Positions 320 to 6,519 of a stretch of DNA of 64,000 bases are shown here, one piece after another; position 1 is the first letter of the stretch; every line of letters begins with the position of its first letter. Made by a program: the position numbers and the translations under genes. The stretch is from Pyrinomonadaceae bacterium (GTDB lineage Bacteria > Acidobacteriota > Blastocatellia > Pyrinomonadales > Pyrinomonadaceae). The DNA lies in contig JBOGOP010000003.1 of assembly GCA_050747225.1 (NCBI GenBank), positions 7,893-71,892 on the forward strand, written 5' to 3'. A model generated the notes under the pieces. That model did no database searches. It worked only from the letters and a program-made list of their open reading frames with translations, and was not told the DNA's origin.

Positions 320-393
320 TGGTCGCGGCGGAAGGAATCGAACCTACGTCGCTCGATTATCGATCGAGGGCTCTGCCATTGAGCTACACCGCG
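320..393 (-). tRNA. tRNA-Ile(GAU) with C33
   Basis: Acceptor CGCGGTG/CGCCGCG, A73, CCA. D arm GCTC/GAGC. Anticodon arm CTCGA-TCGATAA-TCGAG, so the loop has C at position 33. The T stem has one U:U mismatch. Confidence 0.7.
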
Positions 394-419
394 AAGAACA
401 GTTTCGAAACTTTTTGATT

Positions 420-495
420 TGGTTGACCCGACGGGACTTGAACCCGCACATCACGGCTTAAAAGGCCGCTTCTCTGCCACTCGAGTTCCGGGCCA
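420..495 (-). tRNA. tRNA-Lys(UUU)
   Basis: Acceptor TGGCCCG/CGGGTCA, A73, CCA. Anticodon arm GCGGC-CTTTTAA-GCCGT. T arm GCGGG-TTCAAGT-CCCGT. Position 8 is G rather than U. Confidence 0.8.
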
Positions 496-502
496 ACAAT
501 AA

Positions 503-582
503 GTTTCAAGTTCCAAGTTTCAAGTTTCAAGTTTCGCGGTCTCGCTAGAACAACTTGAAAGTTGAAACTTGGAACTTGAAAC
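503..582. repeat. Heptamer-periodic inverted repeat, unit TTTCAAG
   Basis: Left arm 503-534 and right arm 552-582 are almost perfectly complementary. Both are tandem 7-mers. Confidence 0.9.
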
Positions 583-590
583 TATTTATT

Positions 591-667
591 TGGCTGTGGC
601 GGAAGGATTCGAACCTTCGCATGGTCGGATTAACAATCCGATGCCTTACCAACTTGGCTACGCCACA
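591..667 (-). tRNA. tRNA-Asn(GUU)
   Basis: Perfect acceptor TGTGGCG/CGCCACA, G73, CCA. Anticodon arm TCGGA-TTGTTAA-TCCGA. T arm GAAGG-TTCGAAT-CCTTC. Confidence 0.9.
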
Positions 668-674
668 ATAAATT

Positions 675-775
675 TGGACTTAGGGCTTGGGTCTTTGGCC
701 TTTGAGTTTGCCAGCTACGCCGCGCCCTTGCATGTGAAGCACTTCAAAGACCCAAGACCAAAGGCCAAAGACCTT
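675..775. repeat. Heptamer-periodic inverted repeat, units GGTCTTT/CAAAGAC
   Basis: Left arm about 675-706 and right arm about 742-775. The central loop is about 35 nt. Confidence 0.85.
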
Positions 776-783
776 CTCTTAGT

Positions 784-864
784 TGGAGGCGATGAAGGGA
801 GTTGAACCCTTATCGTTCGGTTTACAAGACCGACGCTCTGATTATCCAATTGAGCTACATCGCC
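784..864 (-). tRNA. tRNA-Thr(UGU)
   Basis: Acceptor GGCGATG/CATCGCC, U73, CCA. Anticodon arm TCGGT-CTTGTAA-ACCGA. T arm AAGGG-TTCAACT-CCCTT. The D loop is unusually long at 13 nt. Confidence 0.85.
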
Positions 865-869
865 GGAAT

Positions 870-964
870 CAGTAGGCAGTAGGCAGTGGGCAGTGGGCAG
901 TAGGCAGCGGTTGGAAGTCGAGTGACTCTATCACTGCCTTCTGCCTTCTGCTTCCTGCTTACTG
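870..964. repeat. Heptamer-periodic inverted repeat, unit GCAGTAG
   Basis: Left arm 870-907 is (CAGTAGG/CAGTGGG)n. Right arm 932-964 is an imperfect complement. Confidence 0.85.
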
Positions 965-967
965 GTC

Positions 968-1041
968 TGGTGGAGCTAAGAGGAGTCGAACCTCTACGTC
1001 CTGCTTGCAAAGCAGGCATCATGCCGTTAGATCATAGCCCC
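968..1041 (-). tRNA. tRNA-Ala(UGC)
   Basis: Acceptor GGGGCTA/TAGCTCC with the G3:U70 Ala identity pair, A73, CCA. Anticodon arm CCTGC-TTTGCAA-GCAGG. Confidence 0.9.
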
Positions 1042-1048
1042 TTAAAAG

Positions 1049-1146
1049 AAGTTTCGAGTTCCGAGTTTCGGGTTTCGAGTTCATGAAGGATACTTGTAAC
1101 AGACGAAACTCAACCGTCTTGTTCCGGACTCGAAACTCGAAACTTC
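1049..1146. repeat. Heptamer-periodic inverted repeat, unit GTTTCGA
   Basis: Left arm 1049-1081 and right arm 1124-1146. Confidence 0.8.
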
Positions 1147-1154
1147 TTAAAGTT

Positions 1155-1232
1155 TGGTCGCGGAGGCGGGATTCGAACCCGCACCCTTTCGTTTATGAGA
1201 CGAACGCTCTTTCCAGTTTGAGCTACTCCGCA
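1155..1232 (-). tRNA. tRNA-Met(CAU), elongator type (could be Ile2/lysidine)
   Basis: Acceptor TGCGGAG/CTCCGCG (U1:G72), A73, CCA. Anticodon arm TTCGT-CTCATAA-ACGAA. It lacks the initiator C1:A72 mismatch and the GGG/CCC anticodon stem. Confidence 0.85.
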
Positions 1233-1256
1233 TCTGATTTCTCGTTTTTGGTTTAC

Positions 1257-1341
1257 TGGAAGCCCGCGGAGGAGTTGAACCTCATGCCTTCCGCCCAGCT
1301 CTAAGGTTCGGTTTAGAAGACCGGTGCCGGGAACGCGGGCC
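1257..1341 (-). tRNA. Aberrant 85-nt tRNA-like gene, anticodon-position UCU (Arg)
   Basis: Acceptor GGCCCGC(G)/(C)GCGGGCT, U73, CCA. T arm GAGG-TTCAACT-CCTC. Anticodon arm CCGGT-CTTCTAA-ACCGA. Only about 9 nt lie where a D arm should be, and a D-arm-like hairpin CCTT-AGAGCTGGGCGG-AAGG sits in the variable position. Confidence 0.45.
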
Positions 1342-1356
1342 GAAGGGCGAAGGAAT

Positions 1357-1438
1357 CAGGAGGCAGGAGCAGGAGGCAGGAGGCAGGCGGCAGGTAACCC
1401 CGGGATTCCTGCCTCCTGCACCTGCCTACTGCCTCCTG
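1357..1438. repeat. Heptamer-periodic inverted repeat, unit CAGGAGG
   Basis: Left arm 1357-1394 and right arm 1408-1438. It is followed on the plus strand by TTTTCTTTT. Confidence 0.85.
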
Positions 1439-1446
1439 TTTTCTTT

Positions 1447-1522
1447 TGGTGCCCAAGGAAGGACTCGAACCTTCAACCTCTGGTTTGTAGGACCAGCGCT
1501 CAGCCAGTTGAGCTACTCGGGC
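1447..1522 (-). tRNA. tRNA-Val(UAC) with C33
   Basis: Acceptor GCCCGAG/CTTGGGC, A73, CCA. Anticodon arm CTGGT-CCTACAA-ACCAG, so loop positions 32 and 33 are both C. Confidence 0.85.
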
Positions 1523-1527
1523 GAATC

Positions 1528-5378: not shown

Positions 5379-5390
5379 GCAATCTTTCTC

Positions 5391-5468
5391 TGGTGCGCGT
5401 GGAGAGATTCGAACTCATCATGTCGCTGATCTTAAGTCAGCCGCCTCTGCCAGTTGGGCTACACGCGC
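5391..5468 (-). tRNA. Class-I (78-nt, short variable region) tRNA with Leu anticodon UAA
   Basis: Acceptor GCGCGTG/CACGCGC, A73, CCA. Anticodon arm GCTGA-CTTAAGA-TCAGC. There is no long variable arm, and the T stem has only about 3 good pairs. Confidence 0.7.
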
Positions 5469-5482
5469 AATCAATTCTCAAC

Positions 5483-5560
5483 TGGTACTCGCGGAGGGAT
5501 TCGAACCCACACTGTACAGTTCTTGAAACTGTCGTCTCCTGCCGATTGGACTACGCGAGC
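5483..5560 (-). tRNA. Class-I (78-nt) tRNA with Leu anticodon CAA
   Basis: Acceptor GCTCGCG/CGCGAGT (G1:U72), A73, CCA. Anticodon arm ACAGT-TTCAAGA-ACTGT. The variable region is 5 nt. T arm GTGGG-TTCGAAT-CCCTC. Confidence 0.75.
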
Positions 5561-5594
5561 AATAGCATGGTGTAGAGTGACGACTCTGATAAAC

Positions 5595-5651
5595 GGGCGA
5601 CAAGGAATCGAGCGCGACTTTGGACAATGTAGTCACATTCAGCATTCGCCC
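5595..5651. repeat. Spacer repeat, copy 2 (tRNA-remnant-like)
   Basis: Direct repeat of 5314-5378 with a diverged middle segment. Confidence 0.7.
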
Positions 5652-5656
5652 GGGAT

Positions 5657-5733
5657 TGGCAGGGATGACGGGACTCGAACCCGCAAATCAGCTGATTGAA
5701 GGTCAGCTTGCTTTCCATTTCGCATTCATCCCC
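5657..5733 (-). tRNA. tRNA-Glu(UUC) with C33
   Basis: Acceptor GGGGATG/CATCCCT (G1:U72), G73, CCA. Anticodon arm (A)GCTGA-CCTTCAA-TCAGC(T). Position 8 is A. Confidence 0.75.
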
Positions 5734-5737
5734 TGAA

Positions 5738-5841
5738 AAATTCGGATTTCGGAATGCGGATTTCGGATTTGTTTCGGCGGAGGCATTCCCTTAACCCGGG
5801 GATTTGCAAATCCGCAATCCGAAATCCGCATTCCGAAATTT
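5738..5841. repeat. Heptamer-periodic inverted repeat, unit CGGATTT
   Basis: Left arm 5738-5771 and right arm 5807-5841. Confidence 0.85.
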
Positions 5842-5844
5842 GAC

Positions 5845-5922
5845 TGGTACCGGCGGAGGGATTCGAACCCACACTGTCTAGTTTCTAAAACTAGCGCCTC
5901 CTGCCCGTTGGGCTACGCCGGC
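5845..5922 (-). tRNA. Class-I (78-nt) tRNA with Leu anticodon UAG
   Basis: Acceptor GCCGGCG/CGCCGGT (G1:U72), A73, CCA. Anticodon arm CTAGT-TTTAGAA-ACTAG. The variable-plus-T region ACAGTGTGGGTTCGAATCCCTCCGC is identical to that of 5483-5560. Confidence 0.75.
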
Positions 5923-5928
5923 AAATCT

Positions 5929-6001
5929 AAGGATGAAGGCGGAAGGATTAAGGATGAAACGTTGTAAGATCCATGTCTTCATCCCTCATCCTTCATCCTC
6001 C
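5929..6001. repeat. Heptamer-periodic inverted repeat, unit GGATGAA
   Basis: Left arm 5929-5958 and right arm 5978-6001. Confidence 0.9.
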
Positions 6002-6005
6002 GTTT

Positions 6006-6083
6006 TGGTGGACCTGGCACGACTTGAACGTGCGGCCTCGACCGTCGCAGGGTCGCGCTCTAATTCCACTGAGCTACAGGTCC
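6006..6083 (-). tRNA. tRNA-Arg(GCG)
   Basis: Acceptor GGACCTG/CAGGTCC, A73, CCA. Anticodon arm CGACC-CTGCGAC-GGTCG. T arm GCACG-TTCAAGT-CGTGC. Confidence 0.85.
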
Positions 6084-6089
6084 GACGAA

Positions 6090-6190
6090 GAATTTCGGAT
6101 TTCGGAATGCGGATTTCGGATTGGCCGCTACACAATCTTGACGGATTCATTGACCAATCTGCATTCCGCAATCAGCAATCAGCAATCAAT
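6090..6190. repeat. Heptamer-periodic inverted repeat, CGGATTT left arm with a diverged right arm (AATCAGC units)
   Basis: Left arm 6090-6122 and right arm 6156-6190. The arms are only partly complementary. Confidence 0.7.
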
Positions 6191-6277
6191 TGGCGGAGGG
6201 TGCGAGACTCGAACTCGCAAGGGACTTGCGCCCGTCGGTTTTCGGGACCGGTGCCATGCCAATTTGACGAACCCTCC
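6191..6277 (-). tRNA. tRNA-Ser(CGA), class II, with C33
   Basis: Acceptor GGAGGGT/ACCCTCC, G73, CCA. Anticodon loop CCCGAAA. Long variable arm GGG-CGCAAGT-CCC. T arm GCGAG-TTCGAGT-CTCGC. Confidence 0.85.
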
Positions 6278-6309
6278 AGATATTCTTTGATCTTATTCCG
6301 GTGCTCTTT

Positions 6310-6338
6310 CATCCTTCCGCCTTCAACCTTCATCCTTT
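6310..6338. repeat. Solo heptamer arm (TTCATCC family)
   Basis: Sequence is TCATCCTTCCGCCTTCAACCTTCATCCTT. There is no local complementary arm. Confidence 0.75.
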
Positions 6339-6346
6339 CTTGAACT

Positions 6347-6422
6347 TGGCAGGGACGCTCGGATTTGAACCGAGAATCTCGATTTTGGAGACCGATGGTT
6401 TTGCCAGTTAGCCTACATCCCT
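6347..6422 (-). tRNA. tRNA-Trp(CCA)
   Basis: A1:U72 and G73 (Trp-like), CCA. Anticodon arm TCGGT-CTCCAAA-ATCGA. T arm CTCGG-TTCAAAT-CCGAG. Confidence 0.88.
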
Positions 6423-6431
6423 AAGAAAATC

Positions 6432-6519
6432 TGGTGCACGCGGTAGGACTCGCACCTACGAAGTTCACGAGGAACGCCTGATTTACAGTCAGGTGCCTTT
6501 GCTGCTCAGCCACGCGTGC
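6432..6519 (-). tRNA. tRNA-Tyr(GUA), class II, T-loop UGCGAGU (G55)
   Basis: Acceptor GCACGCG/CGCGTGC, A73, CCA. Anticodon arm CCTGA-CTGTAAA-TCAGG with a long variable arm. The T arm is GTAGG-TGCGAGT-CCTAC, so position 55 is G rather than U. Confidence 0.85.

Follow-up and report, generated by a model that had tools for sequence, protein, structure and literature searches.

Unusual bases at near-invariant tRNA positions in a chromosomal, rtcB-containing long tRNA array of Pyrinomonadaceae

The window analyzed here is a stretch of 64,000 nucleotides from a Pyrinomonadaceae bacterium (phylum Acidobacteriota; assembly GCA_050747225.1, contig JBOGOP010000003.1, positions 7,893 to 71,892). Its first 6.5 kb carry a long tRNA array (L-array) that encloses rtcB, the gene of an RNA 3'-phosphate/5'-OH ligase, and a gene for an HNH endonuclease. 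U33, U8, and pseudouridine (Ψ) 55 are textbook invariants of tRNA, and several genes of the array deviate from them. We conclude that these deviations are genuine variants inherited with the array and that the tRNAs carrying them are probably working alternative tRNAs. As judged from substitution patterns among related arrays, the array tRNAs are under selection to remain tRNAs, with the cloverleaf and the L-shape kept.

The tRNA genes were called using ARAGORN, and their register was checked by covariance-model alignment to Rfam RF00005 (gathering threshold, 29 bits). ARAGORN found 24 tRNA genes on the minus strand at 133–6519. All 24 have an encoded CCA and score above the threshold (33.4–67.8 bits) with model positions 1–71 matched. 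A first-pass annotation, read from the letters alone, had listed five anticodon loops with C at position 33, and ARAGORN returned the same loops: tRNA-Ile(GAU) (320..393, UCGAUAA, 61.5 bits), tRNA-Val(UAC) (1447..1522, CCUACAA, 65.8 bits), tRNA-Pro(UGG) (3329..3402, CCUGGGA, 45.6 bits), tRNA-Glu(UUC) (5657..5733, CCUUCAA, 47.5 bits), and tRNA-Ser(CGA) (6191..6277, CCCGAAA, 40.8 bits). The remaining genes with U33, put at roughly 18, number 19. Three further deviations reported at that stage were confirmed by both methods: G55 in tRNA-Tyr(GUA), the first gene of the array (6432..6519, T-loop UGCGAGU, 53.4 bits); G8 in tRNA-Lys(UUU), which has U33 and G14 (420..495, 37.6 bits); and A8 in tRNA-Glu, which faces A14. 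In the covariance-model register check, the C of each of the five loops fell on the model U33, the G of Tyr on U55, and the odd bases of Glu (A) and Lys (G) on U8, each with maximal posterior probability. The different stem register that the first-pass annotation had named as a refutation was not obtained. The tRNA-Pro gene further combines a U6·U67 mismatch with a D-loop that lacks GG; it was missed by the filters of the whole-window covariance scan, and its score comes from a single-gene search. Assembly error is ruled out by the occurrence of the same bases in independent assemblies (L001, L002, and L003–L011). With ARAGORN and the covariance model in agreement and the same bases in at least nine independent metagenome assemblies, an artefact of assembly, sequencing, or register can practically be dismissed.

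The comparison set consisted of 461 tRNA genes from the window and from L001–L082, which are two contigs with an identical RtcB (L001 and L002) and 80 genomic loci. The orthologous arrays compared came from ~25 related metagenome-assembled genomes (MAGs). L078 is the array of an Eremiobacterota MAG, and L085 is the Anabaena trn operon. Loci with RtcB at least 87% identical to that of the window are referred to as the close clade and more distant ones as the distant clade.

The odd bases at positions 8 and 55 do not stand alone, as positions 14 and 18, with which they make tertiary contacts, have changed to match. T-loops with G55 (UGC) are accompanied by the D-loop dinucleotide AG instead of GG, that is, by A18, in 10 of 10 cases, and UUC T-loops by GG in 416 of 431. 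This G55/A18 combination is found in the Tyr tRNAs of the close clade, in Phe at L014, L023, and L025, and in His at L030. In the window, the D-loop of tRNA-Tyr reads GAGCAGCAAA, with A18 in place of G18; G55 and A18 are kept together in the Tyr genes of L001, L005, L006, L008, and L011, with compensatory changes in the acceptor stem. An analogous exchange is found one position further on, where T-loops with U56 (UUU) occur with a D-loop GA (A19) in the Val, Ala, and Lys tRNAs of the sister arrays (L003–L011). At the 8–14 contact, G8 is never found with A14; its partner is G14 in six cases and C14 in four, and U8-A14 is found in 265. G8/G14 is confined to tRNA-Lys, in Pyrinomonadaceae and Eremiobacterota arrays alike (Lys(UUU) of L003, L006, L008, and L011; Lys(CUU) of L078), and G8-C14 to Ser(UGA) of L005, L007, L008, and L078. 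A8 faces an unchanged A14 in 13 cases, and the A8 of tRNA-Glu is kept in the orthologues of L004, L008, and L011. Since the changes at 8–14 and 18–55 are coordinated, G55 in tRNA-Tyr and G8 in tRNA-Lys are not defects. By this pattern of covariation, each is one half of a swapped tertiary pair (G55-A18 and G8-G14) through which the contacts of the elbow and the core are maintained. The literature searched contained no account of A18 together with G55.

The secondary structure of the array tRNAs is maintained in a similar manner. Fourteen Val(UAC) array genes were aligned and scored on the cloverleaf and the tertiary 19–56 pair, with 500 shuffles as a control. Standard pairing was found in 97.7% of the cells, and 18 of the 22 pairs were changed on both sides. 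The observed covariation values were reached by none of the 500 shuffles, and the pairing fell to 32–51% when the 3' partners were offset by 1–3 columns. The 19–56 pair is GC in seven of these genes and AU in six. Identity elements are also present: G3·U70 in the Ala tRNAs with C33, C1-G72 and A73 in Pro, and C73 with an encoded G at −1 in His. The proposal that the deviating genes are specialized isoacceptors thus gains support, inasmuch as the odd bases are kept across orthologous arrays while the stems around them change compensatorily.

Position 33 was counted in 379 array tRNAs, 179 from the close clade and 200 from the distant clade. C33 occurs in 30 of the former and 10 of the latter, and a purine at this position in only one of the 379. 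Compared with the 5 of 24 in the window array, C33 is found in 6 of 203 tRNAs beside rtcB on viral contigs (Fisher p = 0.0026) and in none of 13 opposite-strand, non-array tRNAs of related acidobacterial loci. The substitution is concentrated in a few isoacceptors: Val(UAC) (7/7 in the close clade and 2/5 in the distant clade), Pro(UGG) (8/8 and 0/12), Ala(UGC) (4/6 and 3/4), and Ile(GAU) (4/7 and 2/6). In the close clade, 24 of 29 isoacceptor groups never have it. This concentration gave a chi-square p of 1e-14 and was reached in 0 of 10,000 label permutations, in tests whose observations are related and hence non-independent genes. Among the aligned Val(UAC) genes, 10 of 14 carry C33, and they belong to four lineages with a mutual identity of just 59–73%. 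C33 and U33 forms may also coexist in one array: L015 has both Val(UAC) isodecoders (6020–6095 and 6576–6649, 81% identical), and L011 has two Ile(GAU) copies, one of each kind, side by side (1964–2038 and 6268–6341). The Eremiobacterota array L078 has C33 in 7 of 24 tRNAs (Val, Ile, Glu, Ser, and Thr, plus Lys and Leu), and its Glu loop is the same CCUUCAA as in the window. Ile(GAU) with C33 recurs in L003, L007, L011, and L041, and as the loop CCGAUAA in L014 and L078; Pro(UGG) is near-identical, with C33, in L004–L009 and L011; and the Ser loop CCCGAAA recurs in L011. In our reading of these counts, position 33 is truly constrained, with U in most tRNAs, purines excluded, and C equally fit or favored in a subset of isoacceptors.

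Several observations weigh against regarding the odd bases, and C33 in particular, as features of specialized working tRNAs. Between close orthologues, position 33 switches between C and U: the C33 of the window tRNA-Ile is U33 in the near-identical orthologues of L006 and L008, the Glu loop CCUUCAA is UUUUCAA in L004, L008, and L011, and the Ser loop CCCGAAA corresponds in L006 to CUUGAAA (anticodon UGA, U33). The same switching is seen in Thr and Phe. Such alternation would fit near-neutral tolerance as well as benefit, and the conservation within the close clade may largely reflect shared ancestry. The Anabaena trn operon has no C33 (0/24), so C33 is not needed for the function of such an array. 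C33 was accordingly rejected as a general L-array trait. Finally, the status of the window tRNAs as alternative isodecoders is deduced from gaps in the codon coverage and from the patchy distribution of the arrays, not observed directly.

The element is a chromosomal L-array of Pyrinomonadaceae. The rtcB gene (3519..4697, minus strand; Pfam RtcB, 406 bits) lies inside the array between tRNA-Lys and tRNA-Pro. The HNH gene (1816..2448, minus strand; Pfam HNH_5 and HNH) is likewise enclosed by the array. The longest open reading frame (ORF) of this HNH gene begins at 2448, and an AGGAGG motif is found at 2409–2404; the start codon is likely to be GTG 2397 or ATG 2394, downstream of this motif. 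An identical RtcB protein is encoded on a contig of GCA_975253635.1, the relatives at 70–95% identity all come from Pyrinomonadaceae/Blastocatellia (Acidobacteriota) MAGs, and rtcB orthologues lie inside arrays in ~20 Pyrinomonadaceae loci. The other 57 kb of the window encode glyoxalase, an HI0933-like flavoprotein, HPPK, panB, panC, xanthine-dehydrogenase subunits, a peroxiredoxin, an enoyl-CoA hydratase, and hybrid histidine kinases. No phage genes were found in the 64-kb window. The comparison with phage-encoded tRNAs drawn in the first-pass annotation does not hold as a description of the locus, which is ordinary bacterial chromosome; the best viral relative of its RtcB is just 59% identical. 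A phage origin was rejected: the anticodon arm of the C33 tRNA-Pro, used as an exact pattern, matched nothing on viral contigs, and when the whole array was compared with cultured phages and plasmids by BLAST, only generic rtcB and tRNA similarity was obtained.

L-arrays are supernumerary, horizontally transferred sets of up to 43 tRNA genes (Santamaría-Gómez et al. 2021, PMC8421152), and HNH homing endonuclease genes and rtcB are their recurrent neighbors (PMC8421152). The association with rtcB pointed out earlier is real, and the link of such arrays to rtcB and HNH was known already. The window HNH protein is 34% identical over 146 amino acids (aa) (E = 2e-23) to the HNH protein encoded next to the Anabaena trn operon; the homology covers the N-terminal 146 aa, including the part upstream of the HNH motif. 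Among loci with 64–95% identical RtcB, the array size varies from 0 to 34 tRNAs, and no array is present at L012, L013, L016, L019, L031, and L034 despite close RtcB relatives. A comparable array with C33 tRNAs is found in the Eremiobacterota MAG (L078). By these comparisons, the L-array is horizontally spread, with a patchy distribution. In the 2021 survey, Acidobacteria were grouped with the phyla having only accretive arrays (PMC8421152); therefore, the window array extends a known type of element to a host lineage that is new for it. Its anticodon set has no readers of the Ser AGY/UCH or Arg AGR codons, and its single CAU tRNA has no initiator features. Because the codon coverage is incomplete and no initiator tRNA is present, a housekeeping set must exist elsewhere, and the array would be accessory to it. 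Scans for promoters and terminators gave weak promoter-like matches, whose number did not exceed that in shuffled sequence. The Anabaena array stays silent in normal growth and is expressed once translation becomes impaired, with 23 of the 26 tRNAs aminoacylated in vivo (PMC8421152).

We propose the following scheme for the window array. The array, a horizontally spread tRNA operon with the RtcB ligase and the HNH endonuclease, would be supernumerary. The partner swaps (G8-G14 and G55-A18, and U56-A19 in the sister arrays) would keep the fold and alter the chemistry of the core and the elbow. C33 is an isoacceptor-specific pyrimidine substitution, which would be tolerated or favored mainly in Val-UAC, Pro-UGG, Ala-UGC, and Ile-GAU and is strictly excluded from most other array isoacceptors. 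The altered universal nucleotides may change recognition by tRNases or modification enzymes, with decoding retained. A natural C33 is found in yeast tRNA-Leu(GAG), where its change to U33 makes almost no difference (PMC13492127), so decoding by C33 tRNAs is plausible. By analogy with Anabaena, the array could serve, together with RtcB, as an alternative tRNA pool when translation or the housekeeping tRNAs are attacked. A bolder version of this scheme is that the L-arrays of this lineage form a "shadow" tRNA set, in which U8-A14, G18-Ψ55, G19-C56, and U33 are systematically re-coded, with partner swaps preserving the fold wherever there is a partner. Enzymes that rely on these nucleotides (tRNases of broad spectrum, proteins binding the T-loop or the elbow, and some modification enzymes) would then fail to recognize the set, whereas synthetases and the ribosome still would; with RtcB, it would be a mobile anti-toxin or anti-stress translation rescue module. 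This bolder version seems to us unlikely, though worth stating.

The main alternatives differ in what they take the substitutions to be for. The most serious is nuclease evasion, as raised in the first-pass annotation: C33, and perhaps G55 and G8, would make poor tRNase substrates, and RtcB would repair residual cuts. The candidate nucleases would be VapC/PIN proteins, PrrC/RloC-type enzymes, colicin- or CdiA-type tRNases, and T-loop tRNases. The position of rtcB inside the array is in line with this idea. Phage tRNAs with substitutions in the anticodon loop or stem resist VapC and PARIS AriB (PMC10264068, PMC12409363), and PrrC cleaves directly 3' of U33 (PMC2610378). The isoacceptor specificity of C33 is what tRNA-specific nucleases would lead one to expect, and the coexistence of C33 and U33 isodecoders in L015 (Val) and L011 (Ile) points in the same direction. 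However, the documented phage escape mutations lie where the nucleases cut or recognize the tRNA (positions 36–41), not at U33. In the literature searched, no support was found for U33C blocking an anticodon nuclease; the sole test located used the Kluyveromyces lactis γ-toxin, whose cleavage U33C leaves unchanged (PMC2275089). In Anabaena, cleavage was seen in the array tRNAs and not in the housekeeping ones, and the authors proposed a sponge role for the array tRNAs (PMC8421152). The protein domain and defense scans of the window gave no candidate nuclease near the array. We regard evasion as possible but doubtful. As a separate observation, a gene at 11704–13056 (minus strand), 5 kb from the array, has a 450-aa product that contains a Schlafen AlbA_2 (SLFN_AlbA_2) domain and gave only marginal PADLOC matches. 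Recent work reports that bacterial Schlafen nucleases act in defense by cleaving tRNA (PMC13056530). In the search for tRNA nuclease and defense genes beside the array, the neighbors other than this gene were housekeeping genes.

Relaxed constraint would explain the same bases without any benefit: a rarely used redundant set would drift, near-neutrally or slightly harmfully and with a GC bias, toward pseudogenes. The C/U switching at 32–33 between close orthologues would be expected from such drift. Decay is also to be seen in the array, where a tRNA-like remnant (1262..1340, minus strand) gives a tRNA-Sec match of 26 bits, below threshold, and lacks the D arm, whereas the acceptor stem, the T arm, and an anticodon loop (CUUCUAA) are still recognizable; its position corresponds to that of an intact tRNA-Arg(UCU) in L003, and it is probably a decayed tRNA gene. 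Pseudogenes likewise make up three of the 26 genes in the Anabaena array (PMC8421152). C33 seems to rise with GC, from Anabaena (0/24) through the window (5/24) to the GC-rich-looking L078 (7/24), an impression only, as GC was measured for the window array alone (52% over the first 7.2 kb of the window). Points against drift are the covariation of stems and tertiary pairs, the constancy of U33 in most isoacceptor groups across an equal divergence, and the retention of the CCA end and of the identity elements that were checked. Neutral drift would also give transversions, but purines at position 33 are nearly absent. Given this covariation and the lack of purines, drift is the weaker rival, and we consider it improbable. 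C-to-U editing of tRNA has precedents in archaeal CDAT8 at C8 and Vibrio TrcP at C32. By the same route, a cytidine deaminase could convert C33 to U33 (or Ψ), giving a canonical mature tRNA. The one point in favor of this is that position 33, where substituted, always has C, which is the only base that deamination turns into U. No deaminase domain was found among ten ORFs in or flanking ten related arrays, which gave HNH, SAM methyltransferase, DUF6847, and peptidase matches, nor in the array of the window, and editing of C33 would leave G55, G8, and A8 unexplained. Editing is thus very improbable, and inherited variants in working alternative tRNAs are the explanation that we prefer.

The closest known system is the Anabaena trn operon. 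Like the window array, it consists of tens of same-strand tRNA genes for nearly all amino acids, is linked to rtcB and to a homologous HNH gene, has a patchy distribution among relatives, and includes class-I Leu tRNAs and an A8 in tRNA-Glu. The window array differs in its acidobacterial host, in having rtcB and HNH inside the array, and in its C33 tRNAs (5/24). The Anabaena tRNA genes are mostly 2–20 nt apart, whereas the window array has long spacers with heptamer-repeat hairpins, a feature not looked for in Anabaena. Between tRNAs of the two arrays with the same anticodon, similarity is 0.64 against a background of 0.59, with Leu(CAA) (0.78) and Glu (0.71) as exceptions; these values were not used as evidence. 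Phage tRNA clusters for which escape from host tRNases has been proposed or shown, such as those of mycobacteriophage C1 (against VapC) and T5 with its tRNA-Lys (against PARIS AriB), resemble the window array in having clustered extra tRNAs, substitutions in the anticodon-loop region, and, in some cases, a link to an RNA ligase (PMC10264068, PMC12409363). Unlike them, the window array is chromosomal, with a closest viral RtcB of 59% identity, and the tRNAs beside rtcB on viral contigs have 3% C33. The RtcB/RtcA repair operon of Escherichia coli and Salmonella has an RtcB of the same Pfam family that is thought to reseal cut tRNAs (cited in PMC8421152); here, no rtcA or rtcR was seen, and the neighbors of rtcB are tRNA genes, not its regulator.

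Plant and fungal cytoplasmic initiator tRNAs naturally carry C33. As in the window tRNAs, C stands in place of the U-turn uridine in yeast tRNA-Leu(GAG), which is expressed and takes part in decoding (PMC13492127). The eukaryotic C33 tRNAs are single isolated cases, whereas up to six or seven elongator isoacceptors per array are affected in these bacteria. The recurrence of C33 in these arrays, the swaps A18-G55, A19-U56, G8-G14, and G8-C14, and the presence of an L-array in Acidobacteriota appear to be undescribed in the searched literature. The arrays provide a natural replicated data set of ~400 tRNAs from ~25 genomes, in which "invariant" positions have changed under visible purifying selection. 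The four swaps suggest alternative tertiary pairs compatible with a working tRNA, and the pyrimidine rule at position 33 together with its isoacceptor restriction shows in which tRNAs the U-turn uridine can be dispensed with. Should the changes affect how tRNA-targeting toxins recognize their substrates, the idea of resistant tRNAs in phages would extend to chromosomal, horizontally spread elements, and L-arrays, whose role is debated, would gain a concrete mechanism. The variants may also be regarded as ready-made designs for orthogonal or nuclease-resistant tRNAs.

The array comprises 24 different anticodons on one strand within 6.5 kb, with no periodicity. As in other L-arrays, the genes lie close together, and the run greatly exceeds accretive arrays in length. 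In addition to the genes described above, ARAGORN and the covariance model gave the following U33 genes, all on the minus strand and listed by increasing coordinate: Asn(GUU) (591–667), Thr(UGU) (784–864), Ala(UGC) (968–1041), Met(CAU, elongator-like) (1155–1232), Phe(GAA) (1622..1696), Lys(CUU) (4823–4900), Asp(GUC) (5005–5079), His(GUG) (5233–5307), Leu(UAA) (5391–5468), Leu(CAA) (5483–5560), Leu(UAG) (5845–5922), Arg(GCG) (6006–6083), and Trp(CCA) (6347..6422). Cys(GCA) (2707–2782), Gly(UCC) (2869–2944), and Arg(UCG) (3080–3155), called by ARAGORN on the same strand, also have U33. A 25th gene is truncated by the start of the window. Its 5' part (1..36, minus strand), recognized by reading the sequence, has ..CUUUGA as its anticodon loop and probably belongs to tRNA-Gln(UUG), the final gene of the array in relatives; in L006, L008, and L011, Gln(UUG) is placed after Ile(UAU)/Ile(GAU).

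Hairpins in the spacers flank nearly every tRNA gene (36–6653) and are not found in the rest of the window. Their arms of 24–43 nt consist of degenerate heptamer repeats (for example, AAATCCG, GGATGAA, CAAAGTC, AGGCAGG, and AAGTTTC). An example formed by inverted repeats, with no strand assigned, lies at 6524..6653, and others lie at 495–590, 1524–1620, 3407–3517, 5078–5235, and 5746–5839. Two spacer motifs were searched for, AATCCGAAATCCG and GGATGAAGGATGA, and found 18 and 14 times, respectively, compared with ~0.1 expected, all in the array; they recur in the arrays L003, L008, L014, L015, L021, and L041. The Rfam matches of the hairpins were spurious ones to miRNA precursors. The hairpins may be candidate processing sites, attenuators, or recombination substrates.

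In the distant clade, a tRNA-Pro(GGG) gene lies on the opposite strand at a constant distance of ~2.2 kb upstream of the array or rtcB (L014, L016, L017, L019, L020, L022, L023, L026, L027, L028, and L042). It is canonical-looking, with U33, a T-loop UUCGAAU or UUCAAAU, and an encoded CCA in 10 of these 11 loci, and it may be an integration landmark. The distant-clade arrays also have an ORF of 113–114 aa in the same place (L020 3468–3812, L022 7070–7414, L023 7085–7429, L025 1958–2302, L028 9262–9603, and L042 8693–9037), grouped here by size and place and not by alignment. It is mostly located between tRNA-Asp (Phe in L023 and L025) and tRNA-Lys or tRNA-Met, and the one copy scanned, that of L023, had no Pfam match.

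Two further classes of tRNA in the array are unusual. All three Leu tRNAs (UAA, CAA, and UAG) are of class I, with a 5-nt variable loop and not the usual bacterial long arm; class-I Leu tRNAs are also found in the Anabaena operon (L085) but not in L078. The tRNA with the anticodon UAU (133..228, minus strand; ARAGORN; RF00005, 56.4 bits; U33) has, in contrast, a long variable-arm hairpin, and a class-II-like tRNA reading AUA is unusual. It is kept in eight arrays, the other copies being in L006 (14113–14205), L007 (9717–9809), L008 (6743–6835), L011 (6349–6441), L014 (11353–11440), L015 (6955–7046), and L029 (8258–8349). The 7-nt loop of its variable arm is CAGAUAA in the window, CAGAU(C/U)A in most others, and CCGAUUA in L007, and thus mimics the anticodon loop of Ile GAU.

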